64,000 nt of DNA from Bryobacterales bacterium (GTDB taxonomy: Bacteria > Acidobacteriota > Terriglobia > Bryobacterales > UBA6623). The DNA is taken from contig CBDFIW010000001.1 in assembly GCA_965248255.1 (NCBI GenBank), positions 1,492-65,491 of the forward strand, given 5' to 3'. Shown here piece after piece: positions 20,003 to 36,980 of this stretch; positions within the stretch are counted from its first letter, which is position 1, and every line of letters begins with the position of its first letter. A program made the position numbers and the translations under genes. The notes beneath the pieces were generated by a model that saw only the letters and a program-made list of their open reading frames with translations, made no database searches and was not told the DNA's origin.

Positions 20003-21028
20003 ACTGGGGTATTTACTTGACTCAGGTGACCCCTACATCTTGTGGTCGACAGAAGCAGCATTTTCAGTGCCGCCGATGATGGACTTGTATGGCACGGGGT
20101 CGATGGCGACCGCCTGTTGCACAAGTCGATAGAAGAGCTTCCCTCGGCTGCGAGAGTTGCGTCGATTAAAGCGGAAGGTAAACTCGTCCAGGTAGTAGTC
20201 CAGATGCTCGGGGTTGACGGCCCCCTGATGCGTCCCCAGCAGCCAACGCTTCAAAAGCGACGCCACGCGGTGCACTCGGGGCAGCAGCTTCGAGGCCGAC
20301 TCCGGCCCCTCATCGAGGAACGTTACTTCGTGCCGGTAGCCGCGCTTCTGTAGCGGCTCATAGCCCAGCCAGCCGTCGGTATGAACCGTGCTGCCCCGTT
20401 CAATCGCTTCTTCGACAAAGGGCATCAAGCTTTCTGCGCTCGCATCCCGGACTCTGCGCATCCGAAGCCGTCCCGTTCCCCTGCCGTCCTCCTGGGCGGC
20501 GATGGCAATCAACGATTTGGTATAGGTCTGGCGACCGCGCACGCCCTCTTCTGGGCTGCCCCAGTACGTCTCGTCCACCTCCACACGGCCGCTGAGGCGG
20601 TCGCGACCGGGGCGCACCATGGCGCGGCGCAACTTGTGCAGCCAGCTCCAGGCCGTCTTGTAGCTGCCCAGCCCCAAGACTCGCTGCAGCCCCAGGGCAC
20701 TCACTCCGTTTTTCTGACTGGTCACCCACCAGATGGCTCGCAACCACAGCCGCAGGGGCTGACGAGTGTCCTGGAACACCGTGCCAGCGGTGACCGAGGT
20801 CTGCCGACCGCAGCCCGAGCACTCCCACAGCCCTTGCCGGACCGGCCAAGCCGCGCCGTGTCCGCAGCGCGGACAGCGGAATCCTTCCGGCCAGCGCAGC
20901 TGGAACAGATAATCCCGACAAGCCTCCTCCGTCGCAAAGCGGGCCTCGAACTCAGCCAAGTTCCGCGGATAGTCCTCCATCGCACCGCATACTACATCTT
21001 GGGGCTACCTGAGTCAAGTAAATACCCC
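20003..21028 (-). mobile_element. IS1595-family insertion sequence (second, unrelated copy)
   Basis: Inverted repeats are GGGGTATTTACTTGACTCAGGT (20006-20027) and ACCTGAGTCAAGTAAATACCCC (21007-21028). The direct repeat ATTTTGGCTTG occurs at 19992-20002 and 21029-21039. Confidence 0.85.
20033..20980 (-). CDS. IS1595-family transposase with N-terminal zinc ribbon
   Basis: 315 aa. FRCPRCGHGAAW...WECSGCGRQTSVTAGTVFQDTRQPLRLWLRAIWWV...VEVDETYWG...TVHTDGWLGY. Confidence 0.9.
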   Translation of the reverse strand: MEDYPRNLAEFEARFATEEACRDYLFQLRWPEGFRCPRCGHGAAWPVRQGLWECSGCGRQTSVTAGTVFQDTRQPLRLWLRAIWWVTSQKNGVSALGLQRVLGLGSYKTAWSWLHKLRRAMVRPGRDRLSGRVEVDETYWGSPEEGVRGRQTYTKSLIAIAAQEDGRGTGRLRMRRVRDASAESLMPFVEEAIERGSTVHTDGWLGYEPLQKRGYRHEVTFLDEGPESASKLLPRVHRVASLLKRWLLGTHQGAVNPEHLDYYLDEFTFRFNRRNSRSRGKLFYRLVQQAVAIDPVPYKSIIGGTENAASVDHKM

Positions 21029-22666: not shown

Positions 22667-23518
22667 TCATCCATCCGGATACTCCTGCCACTGTTCACCG
22701 TCGAGCGTGTTGCCGTTCGCCTTCGGTGTCCGCCCGCCCCACTGCTTGAAGAAGAAAGGCACACCCGCGGACTGGCATTGGTCACAAATAAACCTAGCCC
22801 AATCCGGTTCCATAGGTCTTGTACTGGATCCGCTCTCGCCACCGACAACGATCCAGTCGAGCGCACACTTCTTGCCGTCATAGATCCGTTCTCCATCGAT
22901 GCCGCTCAGAAAATTCGAGCTACAAGGGTCGCTTTCGTGGGTGCTATCAAAGTTGATCGGACCGAGAAGTGGCTCCGCACTCACCCACCGCACCGCCGCC
23001 AGGGTTTCGAGCAACGGTGGAATGCGCTCGTCGGCGCGCTTCTGGTCCTCGACGGATACGCCCAGCCAGACGTTGGGAAATGGGAACTGAAGAAGACGGA
23101 TGAAAGGGTACCCAAGTTCTCGGGCTGGCTTTTCCCAATGCTTCACGTTTTGGGAGCGCGAGGCCAGATAGTCGCGCATCCGCACGGCCCGTTTGGTGAG
23201 CACCTGAAACGTATGCCGATGCGCCATCATGGCCATAACCGCGAACACGCGATCAATGAACTCGTCCGGGACGTCCTTGTGGAACAAATCGCTCATCGAA
23301 TTGACAAACACCCGCCTCGGCTTCTTCCACCCAAGCGGCTTCCGAAGCCGCTCGGGACGAAGCGTCAGATCGAACCCCGTCTCGTACGGATGGCCGGGGA
23401 CACCCCGGAAACGCTCGGAGAAGCGCTCGGCGTAACAGTGCTTGCAGCCTGGGCTTACCTTGGTGCACCCGGTCACCGGATTCCAGGTCTCTTCCGTCCA
23501 CTCGATGCGGCTGCTCAT
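22667..23518 (-). CDS. phage Gp37/Gp68 family protein (DUF5131)
   Basis: MSSRIEWTEETWNPVTGCTKVSPGCKHCYAERFSERF is the characteristic N-terminus of this family. The start is the ATG at 23518. The 422-aa track ORF is an upstream extension. Confidence 0.85.
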   Translation of the reverse strand: MSSRIEWTEETWNPVTGCTKVSPGCKHCYAERFSERFRGVPGHPYETGFDLTLRPERLRKPLGWKKPRRVFVNSMSDLFHKDVPDEFIDRVFAVMAMMAHRHTFQVLTKRAVRMRDYLASRSQNVKHWEKPARELGYPFIRLLQFPFPNVWLGVSVEDQKRADERIPPLLETLAAVRWVSAEPLLGPINFDSTHESDPCSSNFLSGIDGERIYDGKKCALDWIVVGGESGSSTRPMEPDWARFICDQCQSAGVPFFFKQWGGRTPKANGNTLDGEQWQEYPDG

Positions 23519-23760
23519 GCCCGCCCTTCCTGTTCTGCCCGTACCGCCGTAAGCGGCGCCGCCTCCCGCCGTGCTCCGTGCGGTTCCATGTCCCACTGCG
23601 GCGCGGCGATCCGCCCCCCACAGCCCAGACAGCGCACGTAGGCCCCTTCCTCGTCCCGGCGCGGCGTCGTGATATGGCGGTGAGCGCAACACCTGGACAG
23701 TCTCAGAAGCGCCCAGGACAGGAACACTACGACACCAACGGCAACGGTGAAATCGCTCAT
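23515..23760 (-). CDS. small membrane-anchored protein with CxxC (hypothetical)
   Basis: MSDFTVAVGVVVFLSWALL... then RCLGCGG. Its ATG overlaps the upstream stop as ATGA. Confidence 0.45.
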   Translation of the reverse strand: MSDFTVAVGVVVFLSWALLRLSRCCAHRHITTPRRDEEGAYVRCLGCGGRIAAPQWDMEPHGARREAAPLTAVRAEQEGRA

Positions 23761-23993
23761 CAAACCTGCTCCTTTCCGTTTCGCGTACATTCGCCGGTGT
23801 GCGGGCGGTAGCATATCTCGCCCGAAAGCAGCGACATCGGGGCTGCCGACAACGCGAACCTGCTTCCGACAGGCGTGCGCACCGTGAACACCTGGGCGCC
23901 GCACCACGGGCATAGGCCCTTCCCGACCAGTTCATAGCGGGCTCTTTGCAACTCGCCTGCGGTCATCGGCCACTCCTTGTAGGCTTGATTCAC
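23760..23993 (-). CDS. small cysteine-containing hypothetical protein
   Basis: 77 aa with CPWCG and further Cys residues. It is translationally coupled on both sides. Confidence 0.45.
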   Translation of the reverse strand: MNQAYKEWPMTAGELQRARYELVGKGLCPWCGAQVFTVRTPVGSRFALSAAPMSLLSGEICYRPHTGECTRNGKEQV

Positions 23994-24310
23994 GCTTGAT
24001 GGGTCCCTTCAACGCCGCGCTTTTCCCTCTCCGCGGTCCGAGAGCACAGATGCTCCGCTGCCCTTCGCAGGTGGTCAAGGGCGTCCGCATTCTCTTGGCA
24101 ATGGAACTTGCTTTGCTGATAGAACTCGATGCGTCCGATGACGGCTGCAACAACGTCTTCCACAAACGCCCCGTTAGGCTCTCGCCTGTCTTCGCCACGT
24201 CCCAGCGGCCCGTTTTGCCACGAGATCGTGAACCCCCGGCCTGAAGAAACGCCTCCAGCCGGGTTTCCCGCTTTGTCAAGCCAATGCTCTTCGAAAATTT
24301 CAGTCTTCAT
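23990..24310 (-). CDS. hypothetical phage protein
   Basis: ATG at 24310 is preceded by AAGGAGA (MKTEIFEEHWLDKAGNPAGG...). I recognised no motif. Confidence 0.5.
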   Translation of the reverse strand: MKTEIFEEHWLDKAGNPAGGVSSGRGFTISWQNGPLGRGEDRREPNGAFVEDVVAAVIGRIEFYQQSKFHCQENADALDHLRRAAEHLCSRTAEREKRGVEGTHQA

Positions 24311-24671
24311 CTGTTTTCTCCTTTGGTTGATTGTTTCCACCCGTGGCCGCCAGCGCTGCGATGTAGGTGTACGCCTTGCCGCTGCGCATCATGCCGGGGG
24401 AGATTCTGAGAACCCGCCAGCCGAGCAGCAGCGCCTCGGCGTCTTTCTCGCGGTCCTTCTCGTAGCCCCCGACACGCTGATGACCGCCGCCCCCTCCCCG
24501 GTAGACGAGGCCGTCGAACTCGACGGCGAGTTTTATGTCCGTGCGGGCGAAATCGAACCTCCAGCGGCGCGTCTCGTGGAAGCGCAACTCCCGCTGCCAA
24601 AGGCCGGGCTGAAACAAATCCAGCCACAGCCAAAGCGTTTCCTCGCCGGCGCTTTTTGCCTGACGGCTCAC
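24300..24671 (-). CDS. Vsr/DUF559-like PD-(D/E)XK endonuclease domain protein
   Basis: RWRFDFARTDIKLAVEFDGLVY...EKDREKDAEALLLGWRVLRI follows the D...(E/D)xDG...K...GW.VLR pattern of the DUF559/Vsr-like family. Its GTG start overlaps the upstream stop (GTGA). Confidence 0.6.
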   Translation of the reverse strand: MSRQAKSAGEETLWLWLDLFQPGLWQRELRFHETRRWRFDFARTDIKLAVEFDGLVYRGGGGGHQRVGGYEKDREKDAEALLLGWRVLRISPGMMRSGKAYTYIAALAATGGNNQPKEKTDED

Positions 24672-25084
24672 GACACCCCCTCCTCTCTGCCATCCGGCAT
24701 GTAGAAGAACCAGCGGCGGGTCCGCATCGCGGTCAGAAACAGCGTGATGACCGGCTGGCCGTTGCGCTGGAACAGCTTGTGTTGAGTCGTGGCGCGCCGG
24801 AACACCACATCCCCCGGCCGGCGCAGGAACACTTGACCGCGCATCACCTCCACGCGCTCACCCTCGAGATGCAGGCTGACGCTCGCCCAGGGATGGTCAT
24901 GGACGCCTCTTCCGGGGTCGGAGGCAAGCGTCTTGTGCAGATAGATGTTGAAGAATCGGTTGCGCGGAATGACGTGCCAGCGGCTCAGATAGCGCCCGCC
25001 AATAACCCTGTCGGGCGGCCGGGACTCCATGATGCGCCGCGCGAATCGCAACAGCCTAACTCGCACGAAGTTGGGAAGTCTCAT
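24668..25084 (-). CDS. hypothetical protein with cupin-like HxH motif
   Basis: GRGVHDHPWASVSLHLEGE resembles cupin motif 1, G(x)nHxH...E. The ATG at 25084 is preferred over the track start. Confidence 0.4.
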   Translation of the reverse strand: MRLPNFVRVRLLRFARRIMESRPPDRVIGGRYLSRWHVIPRNRFFNIYLHKTLASDPGRGVHDHPWASVSLHLEGERVEVMRGQVFLRRPGDVVFRRATTQHKLFQRNGQPVITLFLTAMRTRRWFFYMPDGREEGVS

Positions 25085-26252
25085 GGCTCTCCTGCGGCCC
25101 ATCCTCGATCTGAACACTCGCCAGCAGCGGCGCTTCGGCCTCGATCCGCCGGAGGCTGAGAGCGGCGAATTCGGCGTTTAACTCGATCAGAATTGCGGCG
25201 CGGCCCAGCCGCCGCGCGACCAGGCCGACCGTGCCCGCTCCCGCGAACGGATCGAGCACGACCGCGGGGACTGGGTCGCCCGCATCGCAGGCGCAGCTCA
25301 GCTGCCATCCGGCCGAACTATGGACGGCCTCAAGCCGTCTGTTGAATCCGGCTGTCTCGTCACTCCGCTCGACGGAACGCGGCCCGTTCGTGGTTCGGTT
25401 TCCGGGGTTTCGGTAGTTCTTCCGCACGATCCGCTCGAACGGCGCTCCGCAGACCGCGCAACATCCCTTTTCACTAGTGCCCGCCTTGATGCACGGCTCA
25501 ACTAACCTTGTCGGCATGGCGGCGAAATAGGCCGCAGGGAAGCCTTCGGTCGCCAGATTCAGCACGTTGCGAAGATTTGCTCCCATGGCTTGCTGCCGCA
25601 CCCTGGGCATCGCGTCCCAGCGGTCGTTGAAACCCTGGTGCCTGCGGGAATGGCCGCGCTGCTTGTCCGGCTTCTCTTTCCATGTGCCTGAGCGCCGGTC
25701 GCTCGGGTCTGAACCTTTAGCGGGCTTCGTTTCACCATCTTTGCGTCTTGCGTGCGCTCCTCCAGTAAGCGGAAACCGCACGGCGAACGAGTCGTAGAAG
25801 TAGCGCTTCTGCTTGGTCAGCAGATACAGCTTTTCGTGCGCCGATGTCGGCCGGTCCATCACGCCCTCGGGCAGCGGGTTTTTCTTGGCCCAAACAATCT
25901 CCGAGCGCAGCCACCAACCGTCGGCTTGCAGCGCCAGCGCGACGCGGGCTGGCATCATCAGCAATTGCTTCGCGGCAAGGCCCGTCGCCGGACGAACACC
26001 CGCGTAGGCATCACCGTAGTTGAGCCATAGGGTTCCGTCCGGGCGCAGCACGCGCCGCACCTCCCGGAACACGCGCACCAACACGTCGAGATGCGCGTCG
26101 AAGGTCGCTTCCAGGCCGATCATCTTCTCTTCGCCGCCGTAAGCCCGCAGGCCCCAGTAGGGCGGCGAAGTCACCACGCAATGCACCGACTCGTCCGGCA
26201 GTTGGGCCAGACGCTCGAACACGTCGCCGACCAGGATGCGAATGTCTTTCAT
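25056..26252 (-). CDS. DNA methyltransferase (beta-class, N6-adenine or N4-cytosine)
   Basis: Catalytic motif VVTSPPYWGL lies near the N-terminus and the AdoMet motif VLDPFAGAGTVG near the C-terminus. A basic insert contains CCAVCG. Its ATG at 26252 overlaps the upstream stop (ATGA). Confidence 0.85.
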   Translation of the reverse strand: MKDIRILVGDVFERLAQLPDESVHCVVTSPPYWGLRAYGGEEKMIGLEATFDAHLDVLVRVFREVRRVLRPDGTLWLNYGDAYAGVRPATGLAAKQLLMMPARVALALQADGWWLRSEIVWAKKNPLPEGVMDRPTSAHEKLYLLTKQKRYFYDSFAVRFPLTGGAHARRKDGETKPAKGSDPSDRRSGTWKEKPDKQRGHSRRHQGFNDRWDAMPRVRQQAMGANLRNVLNLATEGFPAAYFAAMPTRLVEPCIKAGTSEKGCCAVCGAPFERIVRKNYRNPGNRTTNGPRSVERSDETAGFNRRLEAVHSSAGWQLSCACDAGDPVPAVVLDPFAGAGTVGLVARRLGRAAILIELNAEFAALSLRRIEAEAPLLASVQIEDGPQESHETSQLRAS

Positions 26253-26827
26253 GCCGCCTTGAGTTCCACCAGCCATGGCTCCCGAGAGCCGCGCGGCGTC
26301 GCCAGTCCCTCCAGCGCGAACTGGCAGCCGTGTTCAATCGGGGCGATGCCCGACGGATCGCTGACGGGCCACACCACGGCGCAGCCCGCGAGCGGCTTCA
26401 TCCAGACCCAGCTGCGGGGGAAATAGAGCTCGCCGCCCTCGTAATCGTGGTTCAGAAACAGCATCCAACGCCGTGCCGCGGGTGACTTGATATCCGGCCG
26501 CAACCGCGGCGGACGGACGCCGCTGTCGCGCTTGACCAGACGTGTCTCCACGGCAACATCGTTGCCGGCGAGGTCCCGCCGCACGCAGTCGATCAGATCG
26601 GCGATCAGCGTGTAGCTCGGCCGCCGGAGAACAACCGTCTCGATGTCACGCGGGCCGAGCTCGGGTTTTCCGCAAAGGCCCGCGGCGATCTGTCCCAAGT
26701 TGATGAGTTGCAGGCACTCCTGTGGCTGCACAAACCCCTCGATGTAGCGGATGCGGTGTTTTTCCCGGGTGCGTGTCACCGACAACCACTGCGGCGGCAG
26801 TTTCTTCGCAAATTCGGCGTATTCCAT
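26249..26827 (-). CDS. 2OG-Fe(II) oxygenase-like (prolyl-4-hydroxylase-type) protein, catalytic triad uncertain
   Basis: RRWMLFLNHDYEGGELYFP resembles the t.l.YLN....GGEL.F strand of P4H-type dioxygenases. A distal His candidate sits in APIEHGCQF. The expected HxD position reads RLRPD. Confidence 0.45.
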   Translation of the reverse strand: MEYAEFAKKLPPQWLSVTRTREKHRIRYIEGFVQPQECLQLINLGQIAAGLCGKPELGPRDIETVVLRRPSYTLIADLIDCVRRDLAGNDVAVETRLVKRDSGVRPPRLRPDIKSPAARRWMLFLNHDYEGGELYFPRSWVWMKPLAGCAVVWPVSDPSGIAPIEHGCQFALEGLATPRGSREPWLVELKAA

Positions 26828-26828
26828 G

Positions 26829-29321
26829 TCAGTCTTCCTCCGGCACGGCGCTGCCCAGATCGACCCCGTGCTGCTTGCACACCTCGATCGGGATGCGTAC
26901 GGCGCGCAGCCGCATGCGGTGGAAGCGCAGCGGATACGTCGTCACCGAGGCCCCCTGGAGCTGCCCTAGCAGCCGCCGCAGGTCGACGTTTTCAAACGCC
27001 GTGCGTCGTAGTTCGTTGAGCAGTGAGGGGTGCGCGGTGGCGATCACCAAGGCGTCGTCGTCGTCGAGCCGCACGCCGTAGCTCGCCGGCAGCTTGACGT
27101 CATACTTCACCGGATCGCTCAGCAGGTCGAGAAGCGGCACCCGCTCCACACCCCGCGCCTGCACGCGCAGATTGAGGATTTCCCGTAGCGCGTCGCCGGC
27201 GTCGTTGCGCGCCGTTCCGACATGAGCGTCGGAGAGTGGCGGCACTATTCCCCTCTCGCCCGTCCACCAACGCCAACCGGCCGTGAGCGCGCCACCGATC
27301 AGGCTGCCGCGCGTTCCGTGGCCGATGCGCATCATCTCGCGCGAGACCGACACGGCCTCCTCGACGATCTCGTGCCCCTCATGAATCAGCGCCGTGCGGA
27401 TGCGCTCGCTGGCGCCGTTCGCCAACGAGTCGTCGATGCCACGTTCGACCGCCGGCCAGTCCTCGACGCCCTCTTGCGAGAGATGGACCAGCTGGAAGCG
27501 GCTGGCGTCGGCCGCCCGCAGGTTCGCCAGCTTGGTCGAACTCATGCAGACCGAGAAGCGCGGGTTCAAGGTCTGCACAGCGTCGCCGTCGGCGCGGATC
27601 CTCTCTCCGTCCCCACCCGCGGCGATCCGTATCACGTCCATCAACCCCTCGATCCACCGCCGGTCGGGTTCGGCCTCGTCGAGAATCAGCGGCAGGGAAT
27701 CCGAGCGCATGCGCCGCGCGATCGCCGCCGGGGTGGCGTCCGCCACGCGCACCACCATGGGACCCAGCAGACGGGCCGCGACGCGCTTCAACAGCCAACT
27801 CTTGCCCGTCTCGGCCGCCGCCGCCATCCAGATATGAGGCCGCCACTCCAAGGCGCCGCCGACGACGCTGGACACCAGCCAGCCGAGAAAGCGCCTGCCG
27901 TCCAATGGCTGCCGCCAGCGGTAACGCTCGACGGCCTCGGCGACGCGCTTGCGCTCGGCGGGCTTGGCGCTTTGCTCGGCGACATTAATGCGCGCGCCGG
28001 TGACGCAGTGCCAGCCGCCCTCCAGGCTGTCGAGTTCCTGTTCTCTGCCGTCGACCAGCAGGCGGTCGCCCAGATTCCACACGTAGCGGCCCTTGTCGGT
28101 GCGGAAGTAGCCCCGCCCGACCACCCGCGAGAGGTCGATTTGGCCTTGACGATCCGCCGCGCGGATCAGCGCCGACCCCACCGAATGACAGACCGGCCGC
28201 GTCAGCGATGGCTCTCGTAGGGTTTCGAGCCACCAGTTGTAGGCGGCCAGTGAGATCAAGGTCGAGGATTGCGTGAGCGCCGGGCGCGAATAGAGCAGGA
28301 TGCGGTGCGTGCGCAGCTTCACGGCCACGCTGTCGGCAGCATTGCCGAGGATGCGGAAATACTGGTTCTCAGCGACGATGGCCGGTGGTGGAGGCGGCGG
28401 TTCCTTCTTTTTCTTCGGCTGCTTCGGATCGGCCTGCTTTTCCCGTGCCTGCTCGGCCTCGGGCGATTTCCAGGGCGCGGCCAGGCGGCCGAGCCAGTTC
28501 TGGGCGGCTTGCCGGCCGCCGCCCTCGGCGATCTCGTCGGCGATGTCACGGTGATCCTCTCCCTCGGGCAGGGCGACCCTAATGTCCGAGCACCCCAGCG
28601 CGCCGAGGTGCTCGGCGAGGGCCAGCATGCACCCTCGGCCATCGCTGTCGGCGTCGGAGACCAGCAGCACGCGGCGGCCGCCGAGCGGCGACCAATCGGT
28701 GCGTTTCCATGACTTCGCGCCTCCCGCCCAACTCGTCACGACCACCTTGGGGAAAGTCGCGGTCACAGCGTCGGCGCACTTTTCGCCCTCGACGACCATC
28801 ACTTGCTTGTCACGGGGCGCTTGGGCCATCTCCCACAAGCGGTACAGCGGCCGTCCTTCGCTGAGCGCCAACTGGACGTTCCAGCCGTCTTTGCCGTTGC
28901 GCTTTGCCGGTGTGTAGGGCAGGCACTTCGGACCCTTGGCGAAGCGGCAGATCGTGAAGGCGGGTGTCCCGTCAGCCAGCAGGTAGCGATGCCGCGCGAC
29001 TGCGTCGTCGGGCAGGCGCGGGACCCAATGCGGCGGCTCTTTCTTGCGCGGTTTTGGCTGCGCCGGCTGACGGCCGTTCTGCAACGCGCCCCTGACCGCC
29101 CGCAGTGCATTCTTCTGGCTCCAGCCGTGCTTTTTCTGCAAGTAGGTCACGGCGTCCCCTTCCGCGCCGCAGCCGTGGCAGCAGTAGACGTCCTTGTCGA
29201 CGTTGACGCTCAACGACGGCGTCTTGTCGTCGTGAAAGGGGCATTTCGCCATGCGCTCCTGCCCCTTGCCGCGCAGCGTGACGCCGTCCTCGCGCAGTAG
29301 GTCAACTAGCTTTTGAGTCAT
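26829..29321 (-). CDS. phage/plasmid primase-helicase (CHC2 zinc finger + TOPRIM + P-loop domain)
   Basis: CPFHDDKTPSLSV...YCCHGCGAEGDAVTYL is a DnaG-type zinc finger. VVEGEKCADAV and LLVSDADSDGRG are TOPRIM acidic motifs. AAAETGKSWLL with LPLILDEAEPD gives Walker A and B. Confidence 0.8.
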   Translation of the reverse strand: MTQKLVDLLREDGVTLRGKGQERMAKCPFHDDKTPSLSVNVDKDVYCCHGCGAEGDAVTYLQKKHGWSQKNALRAVRGALQNGRQPAQPKPRKKEPPHWVPRLPDDAVARHRYLLADGTPAFTICRFAKGPKCLPYTPAKRNGKDGWNVQLALSEGRPLYRLWEMAQAPRDKQVMVVEGEKCADAVTATFPKVVVTSWAGGAKSWKRTDWSPLGGRRVLLVSDADSDGRGCMLALAEHLGALGCSDIRVALPEGEDHRDIADEIAEGGGRQAAQNWLGRLAAPWKSPEAEQAREKQADPKQPKKKKEPPPPPPAIVAENQYFRILGNAADSVAVKLRTHRILLYSRPALTQSSTLISLAAYNWWLETLREPSLTRPVCHSVGSALIRAADRQGQIDLSRVVGRGYFRTDKGRYVWNLGDRLLVDGREQELDSLEGGWHCVTGARINVAEQSAKPAERKRVAEAVERYRWRQPLDGRRFLGWLVSSVVGGALEWRPHIWMAAAAETGKSWLLKRVAARLLGPMVVRVADATPAAIARRMRSDSLPLILDEAEPDRRWIEGLMDVIRIAAGGDGERIRADGDAVQTLNPRFSVCMSSTKLANLRAADASRFQLVHLSQEGVEDWPAVERGIDDSLANGASERIRTALIHEGHEIVEEAVSVSREMMRIGHGTRGSLIGGALTAGWRWWTGERGIVPPLSDAHVGTARNDAGDALREILNLRVQARGVERVPLLDLLSDPVKYDVKLPASYGVRLDDDDALVIATAHPSLLNELRRTAFENVDLRRLLGQLQGASVTTYPLRFHRMRLRAVRIPIEVCKQHGVDLGSAVPEED

Positions 29322-30717
29322 TCTCGATCGGCACCTTCAGCACGGCCGCGAGAGTTCGCGCCCAGCCCGGCTTGAAGCCGAAGTCCTCGCCGATTCTGAC
29401 CAGCCCCCGGTATCCCTCCCGTCTGCGCATGACAGCGGCGATGCGCGTTTTCATTGCACGCCGGGAAATCTTTGGACGGCGCTCGGACGGCGCGGCATCG
29501 CTCAGTTCGGTCTCAACCTCGACCGGGGCGGGCAAGGCATGTTCGGCGCCGCAGGAGGGGCAGGCCGACAGGCGTGAGGGGTAGACCTCGGCGCACTCCG
29601 AGCAGCAGCGCTGACGCTGGGCGGCCGGGCGCTTGTCGACGGTCGTGCCCTGTCTGGTTCCGTCGAGATCCCAGTGCCGGTTTTCCTCCGGCAGGCCGAG
29701 GTCCCAGGAGTTGCCGGCTAAGTCGAGCAACAGGGCGGTTTTTCCTTTTCCGGGCCGCATCGCGCGGCCCGCCTGCTGCAAGTACATCGTGACGCTCTTG
29801 GTCGGGCGGGCCGCCATGATCACTTCGCATTCGGGCACGTCGGTGCCCTCGGAGATCAGATCCACGTTCGAGACGACCTGGATCAAGCCCTCGCCGAACT
29901 CCTTGAGCACCAGGTCGCGGCGCCGCACGTCCGTCTCGGCGTCGATGTGCTCGGCCCGGAAGCCCTCTTTCTTCAAGCTCTCGACCACCGCCTTGCTGTG
30001 GCGCCGGTTCACGGCGAAGAAGATGGCCCGCTTGCCGGCCCCATAGCGGCGGTAAGCCGCTGCTCCGGCCGCGATCACCTGATCGGTCAACCGCTCGTCG
30101 AGGTCCTTCTTGTTCCAATCGCCCGCTATCGTGCGGACACCGGCGGTCGACAGACCCTGTACGGGACGCAGGACCCGCATCGGAGCTAGATGGCCCCGCT
30201 CGACCAGCTCAACGATCGATGGACCCTGTACCAGAGCGTCGAAGTGATCGCCCAACGGTTTTCCGTCGAGCCGTCCCGGCGTCGCCGTCAGGCCGAGCAC
30301 CCTGGTCGAGGGGAAGCGGTTCAGCACGTTCTCCCAGGTTTTCGCCTTCACGTGGTGCGCCTCGTCGACGATCACGAGGTTGGGTTTCAGCCAGTGGGTC
30401 TCGCGGCGGTTGATGGACTGCACCGAGGCGATCTGGAAACGCGCCCAGCGTGTCTCGGCGTGGCCGGCGGCGATGATGCCGTATTGGTCGCCCAGCCCCG
30501 CTTGGGTGAGCGTCTTGGCGAACTGGCGCACCAGCTCGCGGCGATGGACCAGCACCAACGCCTGCTTGCCGTTCTCGGCCAGCCTGGAGGCGATATAGCC
30601 GGCCACGATCGTCTTGCCCGCCCCGGTAGGCAGCTGGTAGACGACGGCACGGACGCGCCGCAGCTCTTGCCGCAGTCGGGAGACGTCCTCCAGCTGATAG
30701 TCATGCGGGGTGAGCAT
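29302..30717 (-). CDS. SF2 DEAD/DEAH-box helicase with C-terminal zinc ribbon
   Basis: Motif I is QLPTGAGKT, motif II is VIVDEAHH and motif III is LGLTATP. The C-terminus has CCSEC...CPSCG. Confidence 0.85.
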   Translation of the reverse strand: MLTPHDYQLEDVSRLRQELRRVRAVVYQLPTGAGKTIVAGYIASRLAENGKQALVLVHRRELVRQFAKTLTQAGLGDQYGIIAAGHAETRWARFQIASVQSINRRETHWLKPNLVIVDEAHHVKAKTWENVLNRFPSTRVLGLTATPGRLDGKPLGDHFDALVQGPSIVELVERGHLAPMRVLRPVQGLSTAGVRTIAGDWNKKDLDERLTDQVIAAGAAAYRRYGAGKRAIFFAVNRRHSKAVVESLKKEGFRAEHIDAETDVRRRDLVLKEFGEGLIQVVSNVDLISEGTDVPECEVIMAARPTKSVTMYLQQAGRAMRPGKGKTALLLDLAGNSWDLGLPEENRHWDLDGTRQGTTVDKRPAAQRQRCCSECAEVYPSRLSACPSCGAEHALPAPVEVETELSDAAPSERRPKISRRAMKTRIAAVMRRREGYRGLVRIGEDFGFKPGWARTLAAVLKVPIENDSKAS

Positions 30718-32470
30718 CGGGGATCCTCCCTTCCTCTACCGTGACCGTGGCCCAACGCTGGGGAAACAGTTCGCGCCCTCCGGTGGCGCAAACGATCACC
30801 GACAAGCCGCTCTCGGCGGCAAGGGCGTCGCACAACACGACCAGCTGCGTCAGCCCATCGGCGTCGAGCACATCCGCTCCGTCCAGAACGGCGTAGTTAT
30901 TGCCCAGCGCCAGCGCGACCCCGGCCTGAAGCGCTGTCTGCGCCCGCCACTGCTCCGAAGTCGAGCACAGCGCCACGGGCCGCTCCCCGGCACTGACGGC
31001 GTAGGATTGGTCGAGCTTGACCAGCGGCCAGTTAGTTAACTCATGCACCCGCCGAAGGCCCCTCGCCAACCGCCCCAAGCCCTCCTTCATGGCGCGGCCG
31101 CGGATGCCGCGTGGCCCAAGCAAGTCCGCGATCAGCGAGTAGGAGGCGGCCGAGCGGTGGGCTTCGGTGGCTTCGGCGCGCTTTTGGATCAGATTCAGCG
31201 CCTCACGCCGCGACTCGACCTCTTGTTCGGCCAGCGCGATCCGCTCCTCGGACTCGTCCGCCTTGACCGGGCTGTCCGCGCCACCGGCTTGCGCTTCCGC
31301 CGCCCGTAGATCCGCGGCAACATCGGCCCTGGCTTCCTCGGCCCGCTCGCGCTGCTTGAGAATCGGCAGGCCCTTCTGCTTCGCCGCGGTCAGCTTCTGG
31401 CGTAGAAAGTCGAGTCTTTCGCTGAGTTCCTCTCCGCGCTTCTCCCACTCCCCGATACGCTGCTGGAGGGCCGCGTCGTCCTCCGCCGCGTAGAGCGCGT
31501 GATCCCGCACCACGATCTTTCCGCCGCACAAAGGACAGGGCCTGCCGTCGCTCGGCTGGGGCTTCGAGCGCTGGTGCTCTTTGTATTTGTCCTTCGCTTC
31601 GATACCGTCCGTTCGAATCCCGGCGATCTCTTCCTCGACCGCATCCGCCGCTTTTCTGACCTCGTCGAGCCGCCGGGCCGCATCGTCCCTTCTTTCGCGC
31701 AGCCCGGGCAGCCGCGCGGCGGCGTTTTGCGCCTGTTGCGCTTCCGCTGCCGAGACCGCTCCCGAGACATGAAGCGCCTGCAGAACGTCCCGCGCGTCAC
31801 CGAGCGCGGCTTCGGCCTCGAGCGGCGTTACGCCGTCGTAGTCCGACCTCCAGCCGGCAGGCGTCCAGTTGGGGGCCTTCGCCGTGCCGTATGGTTCGCC
31901 CGTGATCGAGGACCAGTCGCGCTTGCTTTCCTTCGCCTTGGCCCGGTAAACTCCCTCGACCGACTCCCACCCCTGCTCCCGCAGGACCTCGATGACATCC
32001 GCCACCATGCGCTCGCCGGCGAGAGCGGAGCGCAGTTCCTTCTTCAGCTCGTCCTCGATGTGCTCGGGCAGCGGCAGGAAAGCCGACTCCCAGATCTCCC
32101 CGCGGGCGCGGGCAGTGGCGCGGGAGATGAAATCCGTTAGTCCGACAGCTGCACGGTGCAGCGGCGGGGGAGCCTCGGCGAACACCCTCATAGCCTTTTC
32201 CGCCAACACCCAACGGAGGTACTCCGCTCCGCCTGGACCCGACAGCAGGACCTCACCGTAGTCGGTCCCCTCGCGGAGGTAGGGTTTCGCGGTCGGCGCC
32301 AGCCCTAGAGGATTAGCCTCGCGCGACAGCACCGAGCCGATCGCCGTGGCGAGCGACGTCTTGCCCGCGGCGTTCGGGCCGGCGATGCCCAGCGGCGCGG
32401 CTTTCGGCAGGGGGATCGCCGCCTGCTCGATGCCCAGCACGTTGCTGACGGTGACGACAAGCTCCGCCAT
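30701..32470 (-). CDS. SMC/Rad50/SbcC-like ATPase with coiled coil and CxxC hook
   Basis: Walker A is GPNAAGKTS. A long charged coiled-coil is interrupted by RPCPLCGG. The C-terminus has YAVLDGADVLD (Walker B/D-loop-like). Confidence 0.7.
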   Translation of the reverse strand: MAELVVTVSNVLGIEQAAIPLPKAAPLGIAGPNAAGKTSLATAIGSVLSREANPLGLAPTAKPYLREGTDYGEVLLSGPGGAEYLRWVLAEKAMRVFAEAPPPLHRAAVGLTDFISRATARARGEIWESAFLPLPEHIEDELKKELRSALAGERMVADVIEVLREQGWESVEGVYRAKAKESKRDWSSITGEPYGTAKAPNWTPAGWRSDYDGVTPLEAEAALGDARDVLQALHVSGAVSAAEAQQAQNAAARLPGLRERRDDAARRLDEVRKAADAVEEEIAGIRTDGIEAKDKYKEHQRSKPQPSDGRPCPLCGGKIVVRDHALYAAEDDAALQQRIGEWEKRGEELSERLDFLRQKLTAAKQKGLPILKQRERAEEARADVAADLRAAEAQAGGADSPVKADESEERIALAEQEVESRREALNLIQKRAEATEAHRSAASYSLIADLLGPRGIRGRAMKEGLGRLARGLRRVHELTNWPLVKLDQSYAVSAGERPVALCSTSEQWRAQTALQAGVALALGNNYAVLDGADVLDADGLTQLVVLCDALAAESGLSVIVCATGGRELFPQRWATVTVEEGRIPDAHPA

Positions 32471-32472
32471 CA

Positions 32473-33327
32473 CTAGAACTCGTCGCCTCCCCAGCGATCC
32501 GTGTCGTTGGGTTCGTTATCTTGTTCTTGCGGCGCAGGTCCTTCGATCTGTTCCGGCTCGGGCTTGCCGTTTTGTTCCTGCCTGGCCTGCCAATCGCCGC
32601 CGCCTTGCGATTCCATCTCCACCGCGGACGTGTCCGCTTCCTCTGATGCCGGCCAGAAGTCATCCATCGCTGTGCGGGCTAGACCACGGATCGGCAAGCG
32701 CTTCAGCAGCGTCCGCAGCGCCGTTTTTTCGGCCATCTGCGCGTAGTCCGTTACCCAGGGGCCGTCGTTGCGCGCCGGAGAACGCTTCCTGCGAGCATCG
32801 ATCTCATCGCGGGAGAGGACCGTGAATTCCGGCTCTGGATTGCCCGGTATGTGGGCCACGGCGTAGGCCGCGATGATCTCTTTGTCATCGCGCCCGCCAT
32901 CCAGCTTCGTGACGTGGCGTAAGACCGGGTGTAGCCCGTCCTCATACTCGAACTCATCGGCAACGTAGACGCAGCGCGCCCGCAGCACAATCCCCTTGAT
33001 GGACTCACGGCACTTGTCGAGCATGCCGCCGATCATGATGTCGAGACGCGCCCTCCGCTTCCCGCCGCTTTTGGGTTTGACGGGAACGATCACGGCGGAG
33101 TGGCCGTCGGGCATCAAGCCGCGTTCCGCGCAGGCGAGCAGCGCCCGCCGCAGCGACTGGGCATCGCACTCGCCGATCCTGGGGTTCGTCAGCAGGGCGT
33201 TGAGCGCCACCCGTGAGAAATAGTCGGGACTGACGTTGATTCGCTTAAGGTGCGGCTCGGCGTCGACCGCGGCGCGCTCAACTGTTTGTCTGCATACTTG
33301 AAGTTGTTCTTTGGATTGACTTGGCAT
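32473..33327 (-). CDS. recT: RecT-family single-strand annealing recombinase
   Basis: The start is the ATG at 33327 with an upstream GAAGGA. LLACAERGLMPDGHSAVIVP...MIGGM...IAAYAVA...WVTDYAQMAEKTALRTLLKRLP resembles RecT. Confidence 0.7.
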   Translation of the reverse strand: MPSQSKEQLQVCRQTVERAAVDAEPHLKRINVSPDYFSRVALNALLTNPRIGECDAQSLRRALLACAERGLMPDGHSAVIVPVKPKSGGKRRARLDIMIGGMLDKCRESIKGIVLRARCVYVADEFEYEDGLHPVLRHVTKLDGGRDDKEIIAAYAVAHIPGNPEPEFTVLSRDEIDARRKRSPARNDGPWVTDYAQMAEKTALRTLLKRLPIRGLARTAMDDFWPASEEADTSAVEMESQGGGDWQARQEQNGKPEPEQIEGPAPQEQDNEPNDTDRWGGDEF

Positions 33328-34040
33328 GTTGTTCCTTCTTTCTGTCGTGGAAGCACCCGCGAGGCACAATCGCTCACCCGGCATTGGGTGCAGTGCACGC
33401 CGGGATTGGGCAGCGGCTCGCTGCCGCCGTCGAAGAGTTCAACGACGCGCCGCACCACCGCCATCGCGTCCGCCCTGGCCGGGCCGGAGGGACGGAATTC
33501 GATGTGCGCCGCCTCGGGCCTGCCGACGCGCGGGCGCGGGCAGGCGATCAGGCCGACCGAGGCAGGCCCTTCGCCCTCGGCCTCGAGCGCCGCGGCATAG
33601 GCTCCCAGTTGCAGCCAGGAGTGGTAGGCGGCATGGCCGGTCTTGACATCGAGCACGGCCTTGCCGAGCCCGGTATCGACCACGAAGTCGCACGTTCCCG
33701 TGATCACTGCGCCCTCGATCAGCGCGCGGACCGGCATCTCGCGTGCCAGCACCTTCCAGCCGACTGGATCGACCGTGGCCTCGATCGCTTTGACGACCAT
33801 GTTGATCTGTGCCTTCGCGTGCCTTGCGGTCGGCGTGCGGTCATCGAAGAGTGCCGGCTCCGGCATGGCGGGAAGCTCTTCCCCCGCCAGCCTGGCGTGT
33901 ACCGCCGAGCCGATCCAGGACGCAATATGCTCCCCGGCGAAGGGCTTGGCTTCGGGGTGCAGGCAGTCCCACATCGCCCGCCGCTCGCAGCTCCGCCAAG
34001 CAGCCAGACGCGAAGGATGAATCTCAACGCACCCGTACAC
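33189..34040 (-). CDS. PD-(D/E)XK (Cas4/RecB-like) exonuclease
   Basis: IHPSRLAAWRSCERRAMW is followed by GTCDFVVD...AVLDVKTG, a D...D/ExK core. The C-terminus has Cys residues (HCTQCRVSDC). The 3' end overlaps the recT start by about 140 nt, so the stop may be affected by an indel. Confidence 0.6.
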   Translation of the reverse strand: MYGCVEIHPSRLAAWRSCERRAMWDCLHPEAKPFAGEHIASWIGSAVHARLAGEELPAMPEPALFDDRTPTARHAKAQINMVVKAIEATVDPVGWKVLAREMPVRALIEGAVITGTCDFVVDTGLGKAVLDVKTGHAAYHSWLQLGAYAAALEAEGEGPASVGLIACPRPRVGRPEAAHIEFRPSGPARADAMAVVRRVVELFDGGSEPLPNPGVHCTQCRVSDCASRVLPRQKEGTTCQVNPKNNFKYADKQLSAPRSTPSRTLSESTSVPTISHGWRSTPC

Positions 34041-34218: not shown

Positions 34219-35793
34219 CTAGAGATAGTCCACAAAGTCGTCTTCGCCTTCGGGCTCCGGTTCCTCGGGAGCCACAATCTCGGCCGCGATCTCGGCGGCG
34301 TGGGCGTGGGCCTCGGCGTCGATGACGGGCCGCGCCTGGGCCTCGATCTCCTTCAGACCCCGCAGCAGCCGTTTCTCCTGGCCCCGCTTGCGCTTGGCCT
34401 TCAAGTCGGCGATACGCGACTCCTCGGCCCAGCGACGCCGCTCGGCCAGCTTCGCCACGCACACCCGTTGCCCGTCGTGGTTGATCCAGACCCTCGAATC
34501 ATCGAAGAAGTCGTACTCGACCTCGACCCGGCGTCCGTCGAGCAGCAGCAAGAGTTCGGGGGCGCGATAGACGCGGTTGTAGAACTCGACCGCGCCGCGC
34601 CGCGCGACGCGTTCCTCGGAAGGCCGCGGCAGCGCCTCGGGGGGAATCCCGACCGGATTGCGCTCCAGGCTCGCCCAGATGTCGGCCGGCGCGCAGCCCA
34701 GGTTCGGCTGCGGTGTGTGGTTGTAGGCCGCGATGTACTCCTTGATCGCCTCGGCGTATTGGGGCAGCGACGGCAGCTTGACCCGTTTGTCGCGGATCGA
34801 ATGCTTCAGGCGGCGGATATCGTCGTCGGTGCGGCAGTGGCCGCAATAGGACGAGAAGCGTTTCCCCACCCGCTCCTCGAACCAGCGGAACCAGCCCTCA
34901 ATCAAACCCTTGCCCTTGGCGTTGCCCGGCTCCTCGGTGATGATGTCGATCCCCAGCCGTCGCAGCCAGCCCAGCGATTCGTCGGTCAACAGACGGTTGA
35001 TGAACCCCGAGCCGGGATCGACGTGCAGCGCCGCCGGCACATGATCCTCGCTCTTCAAGGCATGGCAGAGACTATGCAAGGTCGAGACCGCGCTCTCGGC
35101 ATCGCTCAAGCCAAAGCCGGTCACGTAGCCCGAGCGGATGTCGATCCAGATCGTCAACTCGGGGCGGTAGTGGCCCCCCGAGGCCGGGTGCCGCACGAAC
35201 ACGTCCGAGAGGTGGCCGTCGCCCTCATAGATCAGACCGACTTCGATCACCCTTCTGTCGCGCCGGACGTAGGGGCCGAGGTTTTGTTTGTAGTAGTGCC
35301 AGCCCGCACGCTTGGGCGAGTTCTCGCCCGCCACGGCCGCGGGCAACGATCCGAAGTAACGCCTGACGCGGGAGTTGGTGGCACCGGGGTAACCCTCGCC
35401 CCTGAGCCAGTAGGCGACGGTGGCCATTGCCGGACGCGTCGGCGAGTTATACAACTCGATCGCCCGCACCTCCCAGCCGTAGGGCTTTCGTTGCCGCCCG
35501 CGACGCCGGTCCATCAGAGCCGCCACGCCGCCCGCGATCCAGGCCGCGTGCAGGCGGCGCAACGTGCCCGCCGAGGGCAGCGAGGCGTCGCGGCCGCGTA
35601 ATTGGCCGATGACGTGAGAGAGGCTGTATCCGCTGTCTACGAGTTTGTCGATGCGCCGGCACACCCGGACGCGCTCCAGCACGCGCGGATCGAAGCGCAC
35701 CAGCTTCGATTGCGGCCGGCGAGAGGAGACGGAGGGGGGAAGAGCCGTGGCCCGCTCGGGCATCGCCACGACCTGATCCGAAACAGCGCTCAT
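34219..35793 (-). CDS. MuA/TnsB-type DDE transposase (rve core + Mu-transposase C-terminal-like domain)
   Basis: The start is the ATG at 35793, an ATGA overlap with the upstream gene. WIDIRSGYV...LHVDPGSGF...AKGKGLIEGWF gives the D, D, E context. RGAVEFYNRVYRAPELL...GRRVEVEYDFFDDSRVWI resembles the Mu transposase C-terminal domain. Confidence 0.8.
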   Translation of the reverse strand: MSAVSDQVVAMPERATALPPSVSSRRPQSKLVRFDPRVLERVRVCRRIDKLVDSGYSLSHVIGQLRGRDASLPSAGTLRRLHAAWIAGGVAALMDRRRGRQRKPYGWEVRAIELYNSPTRPAMATVAYWLRGEGYPGATNSRVRRYFGSLPAAVAGENSPKRAGWHYYKQNLGPYVRRDRRVIEVGLIYEGDGHLSDVFVRHPASGGHYRPELTIWIDIRSGYVTGFGLSDAESAVSTLHSLCHALKSEDHVPAALHVDPGSGFINRLLTDESLGWLRRLGIDIITEEPGNAKGKGLIEGWFRWFEERVGKRFSSYCGHCRTDDDIRRLKHSIRDKRVKLPSLPQYAEAIKEYIAAYNHTPQPNLGCAPADIWASLERNPVGIPPEALPRPSEERVARRGAVEFYNRVYRAPELLLLLDGRRVEVEYDFFDDSRVWINHDGQRVCVAKLAERRRWAEESRIADLKAKRKRGQEKRLLRGLKEIEAQARPVIDAEAHAHAAEIAAEIVAPEEPEPEGEDDFVDYL

Positions 35794-36980
35794 CGCCCCG
35801 CCTTTCTCGGCCGGCCCCTCGGGCGGCGCGGCGCGGGTTCCGATTGCGGCGGCTTGCGGGGCCGGCCCCGGCCGCGCTTGATCTCGCCTGAGCGGACCCG
35901 CCCATCCTCGCGCAACACGGCCTCTCCCTCCATGCGGCGCAGATGCGTTTCGCGCCACAGAGCCAGTTGCCGTGCTTGCTCGATGCTCAGCGGTGCCGGT
36001 TGCTGCTCGGGGTTCCAATCATCCGGCAGCCAGTCGGCCAGATCGTGTTCGAGTGCCTTGAGGAGTTCGCCCGCGGCGGCGTAGACTGACGCGGCATGGA
36101 GATAAAGGGGCCTCGCGGCGGCCGCGAAATTTACCGCGCGTTCCGAACTTCTCTCGCCCAGGTCCGGGGACCGTGGCAGCTCGTCGGCCAAACGGCGGAT
36201 CGCTCCGATCCTCGCCAATGCCTGATCCGACAGCGCCGCGGCTTCCGACCGCGTCCGGGTCACCGAGGCCGGGTATTCCGAGCCCGCCACCGCCACCCCG
36301 TCCATCGACCGCAACTGCCAGTTCTCCTGCTTCAGGCTCTCCACCTGCTTCGCCGCGGTCTCGTTCCGCGCTTCGAGCTTGCGGATGCGGTCCTGCAACA
36401 TCTCGACCGACATGCAATCGAGTGCCGTCGGGTTCCAGCCCTGTTTCGCCGCCTCCTCTAAAACGTCGGGGTCGACGCGGGCCAGCGGCTCCAGCTTCGA
36501 TTGCGGCAGGTTGATCAGCCGCAACTGTTTCGCCACCGGCGTCATCAGCAGCCGCGCGACGAGCATCGCACGCTCCGCGCTGCGGTGCGGAATATGAAGC
36601 TTCCGCAGTAGCGGCAGAAACTCGCCGTGCGGCGTGCGTTCCTTGGCCCACAGCAGGTAATAGCCCCTTCTCACCCTCGACCGGGCTGCGCGGTTCTCCT
36701 CTTCCGCCGCCAGATCCAGCGCCTCGCTCACGTCGGAAGGCTCGACGACATTGAGCTGCTGCCCCAGCGCCCGCAGGCGTTCGGCGATTTCCGCCGCTTC
36801 CGTACCGGCGTAAGGATTTTCGGAGGGGGCAAATGCGCCAAGGTTGGCGCTTTTGGATTTCTCAGATCCGCCAAGATTGGCGTTTTCGGATTCCCTGGGA
36901 GCTTCAAATTCGCCAACTTGGCGAATTTGGTTTTTTGGAGGTTTTTCCGAGACAGGTGAAAGGGGTTGTGCCGCACTCAT
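35790..36980 (-). CDS. DUF3102-like protein with C-terminal AT-hooks
   Basis: GYYLLWAKERTPHGEFLPLLRKLHIPHRSAERAMLVARL resembles DUF3102. The C-terminus has KRGRGRPRK and PRGRPRK. The ATG at 36980 is preferred over the track start. Confidence 0.6.
   Translation of the reverse strand: MSAAQPLSPVSEKPPKNQIRQVGEFEAPRESENANLGGSEKSKSANLGAFAPSENPYAGTEAAEIAERLRALGQQLNVVEPSDVSEALDLAAEEENRAARSRVRRGYYLLWAKERTPHGEFLPLLRKLHIPHRSAERAMLVARLLMTPVAKQLRLINLPQSKLEPLARVDPDVLEEAAKQGWNPTALDCMSVEMLQDRIRKLEARNETAAKQVESLKQENWQLRSMDGVAVAGSEYPASVTRTRSEAAALSDQALARIGAIRRLADELPRSPDLGERSSERAVNFAAAARPLYLHAASVYAAAGELLKALEHDLADWLPDDWNPEQQPAPLSIEQARQLALWRETHLRRMEGEAVLREDGRVRSGEIKRGRGRPRKPPQSEPAPRRPRGRPRKAGR
36830..36930. repeat. 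three ~30-bp direct repeats, each centred on CGCCAA-N1-2-TTGGCG
   Basis: Palindromic cores are at 36835-36850 (GCGCCAAGGTTGGCGC), 36869-36882 (CGCCAAGATTGGCG) and 36910-36924 (TCGCCAACTTGGCGA). Each is followed by a TTTTGGATT-like tail. Confidence 0.7.

Follow-up and report, generated by a model that had tools for sequence, protein, structure and literature searches.

Within a 64,000-nucleotide stretch of a Bryobacterales genome (NCBI GenBank assembly GCA_965248255.1, contig CBDFIW010000001.1, positions 1,492 to 65,491 of the forward strand; here called the window), four minus-strand open reading frames lie between positions 24300 and 26827. In the order in which they are read, they encode a 192-amino-acid (aa) oxygenase-like protein (D), a DNA methyltransferase (M), a cupin (C) and a 123-aa nuclease-like protein (V). 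Do these genes form a system of their own? The initial annotation, which had placed them at exactly these coordinates, suggested that they might, and raised two possibilities: a pathway that hypermodifies DNA bases, and a self/non-self nuclease module that depends on modification. The evidence set out below favours another answer, namely that the block is probably a boundary within a single early operon, between a conserved replication module and a variable cassette of accessory (counter-defence) genes. D would have been inherited with the replication genes; the methylase, cupin and nuclease would be independently swappable accessory genes, and the cassette would continue with a homologue of the Tad1 anti-Thoeris sponge.

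The impression of a unit comes in the first place from the junctions, and the ATGA, 29-nt and GTGA overlaps previously described were all borne out by reading the sequence. The D stop codon overlaps the methylase ATG (26252; an alternative ATG lies at 26276) as ATGA, the end of the methylase gene (25056) lies 29 nt inside the cupin gene (ATG 25084, with GGAG five bases upstream), and the cupin stop and the GTG of the nuclease gene (24671) share the sequence GTGA. The same packing is found on both sides of the block. Upstream, the primase stop (TGA, 26831-26829) is followed after a gap of 1 base by the ATG of D (26827), and the RecT/ATPase, ATPase/helicase and helicase/primase pairs overlap by 1, 17 and 20 nt, respectively. 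Downstream, the nuclease gene overlaps a Tad1-like gene (ATG 24310) by 11 nt, the Tad1-like gene and the gene for a small protein, p77, are joined by GTGA at 23993, and 1-nt overlaps follow at 23760 and 23515. All 11 consecutive junctions from RecT (32473-33384) to the DUF5131 gene (22667-23515) fall between -29 and +1 nt. A search for minus-strand terminator-like sites found none between ~34 kb and 22.6 kb; one is present at 22596-22579, after the DUF5131 gene. Because the packing is operon-wide and no terminator-like site interrupts it, the four genes are a piece of one long, translationally packed minus-strand early operon, and the tight coupling is not specific to them. Nor did base composition give a clear sign that the four genes are of foreign origin (GC content 0.63-0.65, compared with 0.66-0.68 for the replication genes).

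Profile, phrog and structural evidence upheld the fold or family to which each of the four proteins had been assigned, and the motifs on which those assignments were based (TSPPYW, DPFAGAGT, GVHDHPW, DFA...VEFDG...GWRVLR and RLRPD) are all present. The least obvious case is D (26249..26827, minus strand), which has no match in Pfam or NCBIfam and only a local match, over residues 121-154, to the '2OG-Fe(II) oxygenase' family phrog_61 (2OG, 2-oxoglutarate). The protein is represented by only four 90%-clusters among 5.8 billion proteins, and one 3.26-Mb contig carries an identical copy. When 1.84 billion representatives were searched with a profile, 22 proteins matched with E < 1e-10 and 185 with E < 1e-3. 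The better matches are ~200-250 aa long and have in common the pattern W.LFLNxDYxGGELYFPTR...P.AG..V.WP..IP.GIAP..GYQF.L.G; in D itself we confirmed FLNHDYEGGELYFP, the segment that had been likened to a strand of prolyl 4-hydroxylase (P4H)-type 2OG-Fe(II) oxygenases. Against the PDB, the D family profile matched the Bacillus anthracis P4H (3itq, E 1.7e-8) and human P3H1 (8k0e, E 1e-4). Ten phage proteins from viral contigs that are genuine 2OG oxygenases served for an hhalign comparison, in which the family aligned with them over ~160 columns (99.1% probability, E 1.4e-18). Searches of viral contigs with the D profile brought up hardly anything but genuine HxD...H oxygenases, aligned to residues 122-171; these were used as a positive-control set, not as relatives of D. 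Single-sequence searches of the PDB with D, the cupin and the nuclease gave noise only, and an AlphaFold2 (AF2) model of D built from a four-sequence alignment was discarded (pLDDT 40). Taken at the level of profiles, the homology of D to the P4H-type fold is solid: in comparison with the P4H-type enzymes (2OG-FeII_Oxy_3; 3itq; the marine-phage family phrog_61), the LNxDYxGGELYFP hairpin motif is almost identical and the size, ~200 aa, is similar.

In contrast, the residues on which catalysis depends in those enzymes have been exchanged. In the hhalign alignment, the His of HxD corresponds to R110 and the Asp to D112, so that D reads R110-P111-D112 (within RLRPD) at this position; the distal His corresponds to S159, and the 2OG-binding Arg (of SGxRY) to Q169. 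The doubt that the initial annotation had expressed about the missing HxD was thus well placed. No invariant His was found to take over, either in the four close sequences or in the 27-member family. In a motif survey of the 150 matches listed, the close D family was without the triad, whereas 95 of the 126 weaker matches (117 with a recognisable core motif) had HxD together with a distal His...Arg/Lys. D lies below all Pfam thresholds, and only 3 of the 27 family members match 2OG-FeII_Oxy_3 at all, the best with E 3e-4 and 22 bits against a cut-off of 27. Since the HxD His, the distal His and the 2OG Arg are all replaced, D is predicted not to be a conventional Fe(II)/2OG oxygenase.

This bears directly on the idea of base hypermodification, in which the methylase would add a methyl group and D and/or the cupin would oxidise it further, in the manner of TET/JBP-like chemistry. 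The tight coupling of the four genes and the membership of D in the 2OG-oxygenase superfamily are in keeping with such a scheme; the loss of the His-Asp-His triad and of the 2OG Arg, in D and in its whole family, is not.

If D is not an oxygenase of the methylase, to what does it belong? We addressed linkage by tblastn, comparing the proteins of the window with 19 related loci (designated L001 and so on) and, conversely, the extra genes of the relatives with the window. In all close relatives D lies directly downstream of the primase. Upstream of it in the window are genes for a 590-aa ATPase (30701..32473, minus strand), an SF2 helicase of 471 aa with ResIII/DEAD and Helicase_C domains (29302..30717, minus strand; Pfam ResIII 8.7e-27, Helicase_C 2.5e-15; phrog_16 DNA helicase 2e-88) and an 830-aa primase with a CHC2 zinc finger, a Toprim domain and a C-terminal extension (26829..29321, minus strand; Pfam Zn_ribbon_DnaG 2.2e-18; phrog_35358 DNA primase 4.6e-42). 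The same ATPase-helicase-primase synteny recurs in distant loci (L094-L097), in which D is 29-35% identical and the primase 40-45%; syntenic orthologues of the ATPase were found at 32-38% identity in L095, L096 and L097. In L095 and L096/L104, D and the primase stop overlap; in L097 the primase is split and D comes directly after it, and in L094 D lies three small genes beyond the primase. What comes after D in these loci varies: two cytosine-5 (C5) methylases in L095, a helix-turn-helix protein in L096, and small open reading frames in L094 and L097. The genuine phage 2OG oxygenases, by comparison, sit in other contexts, whereas D is fixed after the primase. We also noted that the ATPase, the first gene of the module, is itself only weakly similar to known families (SMC/AAA_23; an SMC-related NCBIfam match; LmuB and PtuA-like similarity in PADLOC), and heads the helicase-primase-D module in all relatives.

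Because D follows the primase even at 29-35% identity while its later neighbours differ, we regard it, from synteny and homology, as the last gene of a conserved replication module (SMC-like ATPase, SF2 helicase, CHC2 primase, D), and its link to the methylase as apparently local and recent. Its role would then be non-catalytic, or at least not that of an oxygenase, and D would serve the primase or replisome as an accessory or scaffold factor. Alternatively, it could be a regulatory or specificity partner of the methyltransferase, and the ATGA overlap, the presence of the methylase directly after D in most close relatives and that of C5 methylases after D in L095 could all be read in this way. 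However, no methylase follows D in L098, L103, L096/L104, L094 or L097, the primase module is the only invariant partner of D across the distant loci, and tblastn detected the methylase family in 253 phage records but gave no match to D in the same phage collection. Such a partnership therefore seems very unlikely.

The same comparison shows how loosely the remaining three genes are held together. The initial annotation had made much depend on whether the four-gene linkage is kept in other phages, and D-M-C-V is contiguous only in the window, L089, L099 and, with a truncated nuclease, L102. An extra gene is inserted before the nuclease in L090-92 (D-M-C-x-V), in L100 (D-M-x-V) and in L098 and L103, which have the order D-C-x-V and no methylase. 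The order is D-M-V in L001/L002/L101, and the cupin is absent from L001/L002, L100 and L003. In L003 the methylase is truncated to 82 aa and followed by the nuclease, and in L004 it is split and followed by the cupin, with the neighbouring genes intact in both. The distant loci have D and none of the other three (L094, L096/L104), D accompanied by C5 methylases (L095), or D and, further on, the cupin and methylase in reverse order (D...C-M; L097). Thus, across about 17 related prophages, the methylase, cupin and nuclease are each dispensable, and D alone is constant, together with the primase. For hypermodification, the D-M-C order kept in several close relatives is a point in favour; the persistence of D without the methylase (L098, L103, L094, L096) or with C5 methylases instead (L095) speaks against it, as do the intact neighbours of the damaged methylases in L003 and L004.

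The methylase (25056..26252, minus strand; 398 aa) has a clear identity. It matches Pfam N6_N4_Mtase (PF01555) with E 1.1e-36 and 127.3 bits, compared with a threshold of 26.7, and PADLOC MTase_II with 6.9e-73, and is distantly CcrM-like. Motif IV (TSPPYW, residues 28-33) precedes motif I (DPFAGAGT, near residue 340), which is the beta-class order. Its relatives keep the SPPY and FxGxG motifs and four Cys residues (CxxC...CxC) around a basic loop, which L001 and L097 have lost in part or altogether. No restriction partner was apparent. The protein is thus predicted to be an ordinary phage orphan beta-class amino-methyltransferase: like other such enzymes (N6_N4_Mtase; PADLOC MTase_II/oMTase; distant CcrM) it has the IV-then-I order with SPPY and FxGxG, a strong Pfam score, no evident cognate restriction enzyme and a position in the early region, and it differs from them in the basic, CxxC...CxC-bracketed insert, which varies in length among relatives. 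An SPPY motif IV is typical of N4-cytosine enzymes, which suggests N4-cytosine as the target. The methylase would modify the phage DNA and so evade host restriction.

The cupin (24668..25084, minus strand; 138 aa) was recognised by its HxH, and the structure prediction that had been proposed as a check gave a jelly-roll (AF2; pLDDT 92.6, pTM 0.85). It belongs to the phage family phrog_4786 (E 2.1e-33); none of its 108 homologues has a Pfam domain. H50, H62, H64, E79 and H102 are invariant in 40 sequences, with H62/H64 (the HxH of motif 1) and H102 (motif 2) as the predicted metal ligands. A Foldseek search of the PDB with the model gave 384 matches at E <= 1e-3, all among the matches listed being cupins; the best TM-scores were to thiol dioxygenases (6xb9, 0.68; 4qma, 0.65), and auxin-binding protein was also found. 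The best viral structure matches are uncharacterised phage proteins. The likeness to thiol dioxygenase 3-His cupins (cysteine dioxygenase, CDO; 3-mercaptopropionate dioxygenase, 6xb9) consists of the barrel, the HxH...H triad and TM-scores of 0.60-0.68; in contrast, the phage protein is only 14-20% identical to them and much shorter (138 compared with ~190-200 aa), and neither the Cys-Tyr crosslink specific to CDO nor its substrate Arg was identified in it. The label 'cysteine dioxygenase' that members of the family usually bear in phage records is a putative annotation.

Members of this cupin family occur in 83 phage records (Mycobacterium, Gordonia, Xylella, Burkholderia, Caulobacter Cr30 and others). 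In the six neighbourhoods inspected, the genes around the cupin are early or replication genes, and none is a Pfam-confirmed methylase. In a Labrenzia phage, a putative DNA methyltransferase is annotated two genes downstream of the cupin, which the Pfam scan did not confirm, and the 'methyltransferase' annotated beside the cupin in Burkholderia PE067 ('_059') is a DUF1376 protein. A general association between cupin and methylase was rejected, as phages of Marinobacter, Caulobacter, Gordonia and Mycobacterium have genes other than methylases beside the cupin. As a separate observation, the cupin homologue of L097 (33% identity; L097:8455-10100) directly precedes a 43%-identical methylase and shares an overlap with it, in an order reversed relative to the window. 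We are confident that the cupin has an intact, invariant 3-His site; its family is widespread in phages and, in the neighbourhoods inspected, usually occurs without a methylase. It would be an active metalloenzyme acting on a small-molecule or nucleic-acid substrate, independently of the methylase. An intact 3-His site is also what hypermodification would require of the cupin, but the protein is found without the methylase in L098 and L103 and beside none in the Mycobacterium, Gordonia, Burkholderia and Caulobacter phages. Taken together with the missing ligands of D, the way in which D tracks the primase and the unconserved linkage, this leaves the proposed hypermodification pathway without support, and we regard it as extremely improbable.

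The last of the four genes (24300..24671, minus strand; 123 aa) encodes a small nuclease candidate that is DUF559-like or Vsr-fold-like. It matches phrog_503 with E 8.6e-23, DUF559 (PF04480) below threshold (17.3 bits against a cut-off of 20.6; E 0.0045) and, as a family profile, weakly the PD-(D/E)XK homing-endonuclease domain of I-Bth0305I (3r3p, E 0.018). E28, H32, D40, E51, H64, E75 and K76 are invariant, and the protein has the D...(V/I)E.DG...H...EK...GW.VLR pattern in common with DUF559 and Vsr-like nucleases (Vsr; 3r3p). The family is present in 14 phage records, in which the homologues are annotated as DUF559 or Vsr. However, there was no Pfam match to Vsr at E <= 0.1, and the protein contains no cysteine, so that the Vsr zinc site is absent; on these two grounds it is predicted to be a DUF559-like protein and not a Vsr orthologue. 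It would be a PD-(D/E)XK-type nuclease that acts alone.

Vsr-Dcm pairs are well established, with the Vsr nickase correcting deamination damage at methylated cytosines, and a nuclease next to a methyltransferase naturally invites comparison with them. One could suppose that the 123-aa protein is paired with a methyltransferase, and works as a repair nickase of the Vsr type or supplies the nuclease of a module that is restriction-modification-like or modification-dependent. Indeed, the window, L089, L099 and L001 have the nuclease next to the SPPY methylase or close to it, and most close relatives have a C5 cytosine methylase ~1 kb downstream in the same operon. Yet the nuclease remains intact in loci that lack the N4/N6 methylase or have it truncated (L098, L103, L003), and also in those in which a C5 methylase could not be detected (the window, L103), which argues against a restriction-modification-like or strict Vsr-methylase dependency. 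Unlike Vsr-like nucleases, it is not tied to a C5 methylase in the window. Moreover, the inserted gene parts it from the cupin and methylase in L090-92, and a remote homologue instead follows a giant ParB-domain protein. Given also its dissimilarity to Vsr itself, we consider this pairing unlikely, although a looser Vsr-like relation to cytosine methylation is possible, as most close relatives carry the downstream C5 methylase. The related suggestion of a modification-dependent nuclease module, with two metal enzymes flanking the methylase, fares no better, since D has no ligands and the nuclease stays intact without the methylase.

The genes that follow give a clue to what the variable part of the operon is for. 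Directly after the nuclease, and outside the block as initially annotated, is a 106-aa homologue of Tad1 (Thoeris anti-defence 1; 23990..24310, minus strand; phrog_2428, 3e-20), which matched the PDB entries 8kbb (phmmer; E 1.5e-8 over residues 32-105) and 7uav/8kbg (2e-4). Orthologues of this gene in L089, L091 and L092 have precomputed Acb2_Tad1_hairpin Pfam matches; a Pfam rescan did not reproduce these or the precomputed Phage_P22_Y8K6 matches, and Tad1 was then confirmed against the PDB sequences. There follow p77, a Cys-rich protein of 77 aa (23760..23993, minus strand) that relatives keep at 78-85%, an 81-aa protein with a hydrophobic N-terminus (23515..23760, minus strand) and the 282-aa DUF5131 (phage Gp37/Gp68) protein (22667..23515, minus strand; Pfam DUF5131 2e-96; PADLOC PDC-M41B/M30B ~1e-88), whose gene forms the conserved end of the variable cassette. 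The 81-aa protein is the homologue of a 59-aa protein of the relatives; that of L001 matched the window by tblastn at 23760-23590 with 65% identity.

In the relatives, the slot between the nuclease and DUF5131 carries genes that are, by precomputed Pfam matches, Tad3-like, Fic, C5 DNA methylase and P22_Y8K6-like (L090:7615-8043, L092:9316-9789, L001:10506-11555 and L091:6678-7007). None of these was found in the window by tblastn, and the position after the 81-aa gene, which holds the C5 methylase in most relatives (~1 kb downstream of the nuclease), is empty there. Since a Tad1 homologue adjoins the block, and Tad3-like, Fic and C5-methylase genes occupy the relatives' slot, counter-defence is most likely the theme of the variable genes. 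As in known anti-defence clusters (Tad1/Acb2-type sponges with orphan methylases), there is high gene turnover between conserved flanks; unlike in those, the 'island' status of the cassette is drawn from the comparison of about 17 related prophages, and the roles of the cupin and nuclease are putative. Literature searches on DUF5131, on the phage 'cysteine dioxygenase' and on cupins in anti-defence turned up no functional study. The DUF5131 protein itself has a Cys-rich N-terminus and a weak match to 'radical SAM mobile pair protein A', and PDC-M41B/M30B are candidate defence families of PADLOC.

Several considerations count against the boundary we propose between a replication module and an accessory cassette. 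Most of the close relatives come from one metagenome or set of metagenome-assembled genomes (MAGs) and so are not independent samples. The fold attributed to D is derived from profile homology, its AF2 model being unusable, and both the biochemical activities and an interaction of D with the primase are predictions. The counter-defence role of the cupin and nuclease is a case of guilt by association, and the D-M-C order of several close relatives, together with the arrangement in L097, may reflect a facultative link between the cupin and this methylase subfamily. A more far-reaching possibility is that either D is an obligate, unrecognised subunit of the phage ATPase/helicase/primase replisome, or the cupin and nuclease are new counter-defence effectors. 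We think this rather improbable. In the first case, replication would have recruited an oxygenase fold that is catalytically dead; in the second, the cupin might, for example, act on a nucleotide by modifying it or remove an immune signal of the host by destroying it, in keeping with the position of both genes in a cassette that has Tad1, Tad3-like genes and orphan methylases.

The element that carries the operon is a temperate prophage of a Bryobacterales-type host, bearing a Mu-like transposase. The phage setting had been recognised correctly, and is evident in the window from RecT, a PD-(D/E)XK-type exonuclease in the same operon and a Mu-type transposase of 599 aa (34219-36018, minus strand; Mu-transpos_C, rve; phrog_310 at 6e-85), whose gene precedes the operon; the related prophages carry phage lysozyme, tail-X and holin genes. 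For a Mu-like phage, the combination of this transposase with a full RecT/exonuclease/helicase/primase module is unusual. The closest species-representative genomes are Bryobacterales MAGs, some of which hold up to three such prophages, and a MAG of Candidatus Binatia holds a distant relative. No similar DNA turned up in the phage collection when it was searched with the region by megablast. Other mobile elements are also present in the window. Two group II intron copies lie in opposite orientation at 39652-39922 (minus strand) and 45810-46081 (plus strand; RF02001, 122.4 bits each), with apparent host genes (AtuA-like, glutamate symporter-like) between them, and an RVT_1+GIIM maturase reading frame (38143-39528, minus strand) belongs to one of the copies. 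Just downstream of the early operon is an IS1595-family transposase (20033-20980, minus strand; DDE_Tnp_IS1595 9e-31, with a zinc ribbon).

A hypermodification or self/non-self system at this locus would have been new. The evidence points instead to an ordinary mosaic of phage early genes, a known kind of operon, and the novelty left over is modest. It resides in two features. The D family appears to be a small, unannotated group with a 2OG-oxygenase fold, ligand-less and linked to the primase across deep divergence, and is a candidate pseudoenzyme replication factor. Finally, the Tad1-anchored variable slot in these prophages of Acidobacteria and Binatia marks out two common phage families, the '3-His cupin' and the 'DUF559-like' one, as counter-defence candidates.

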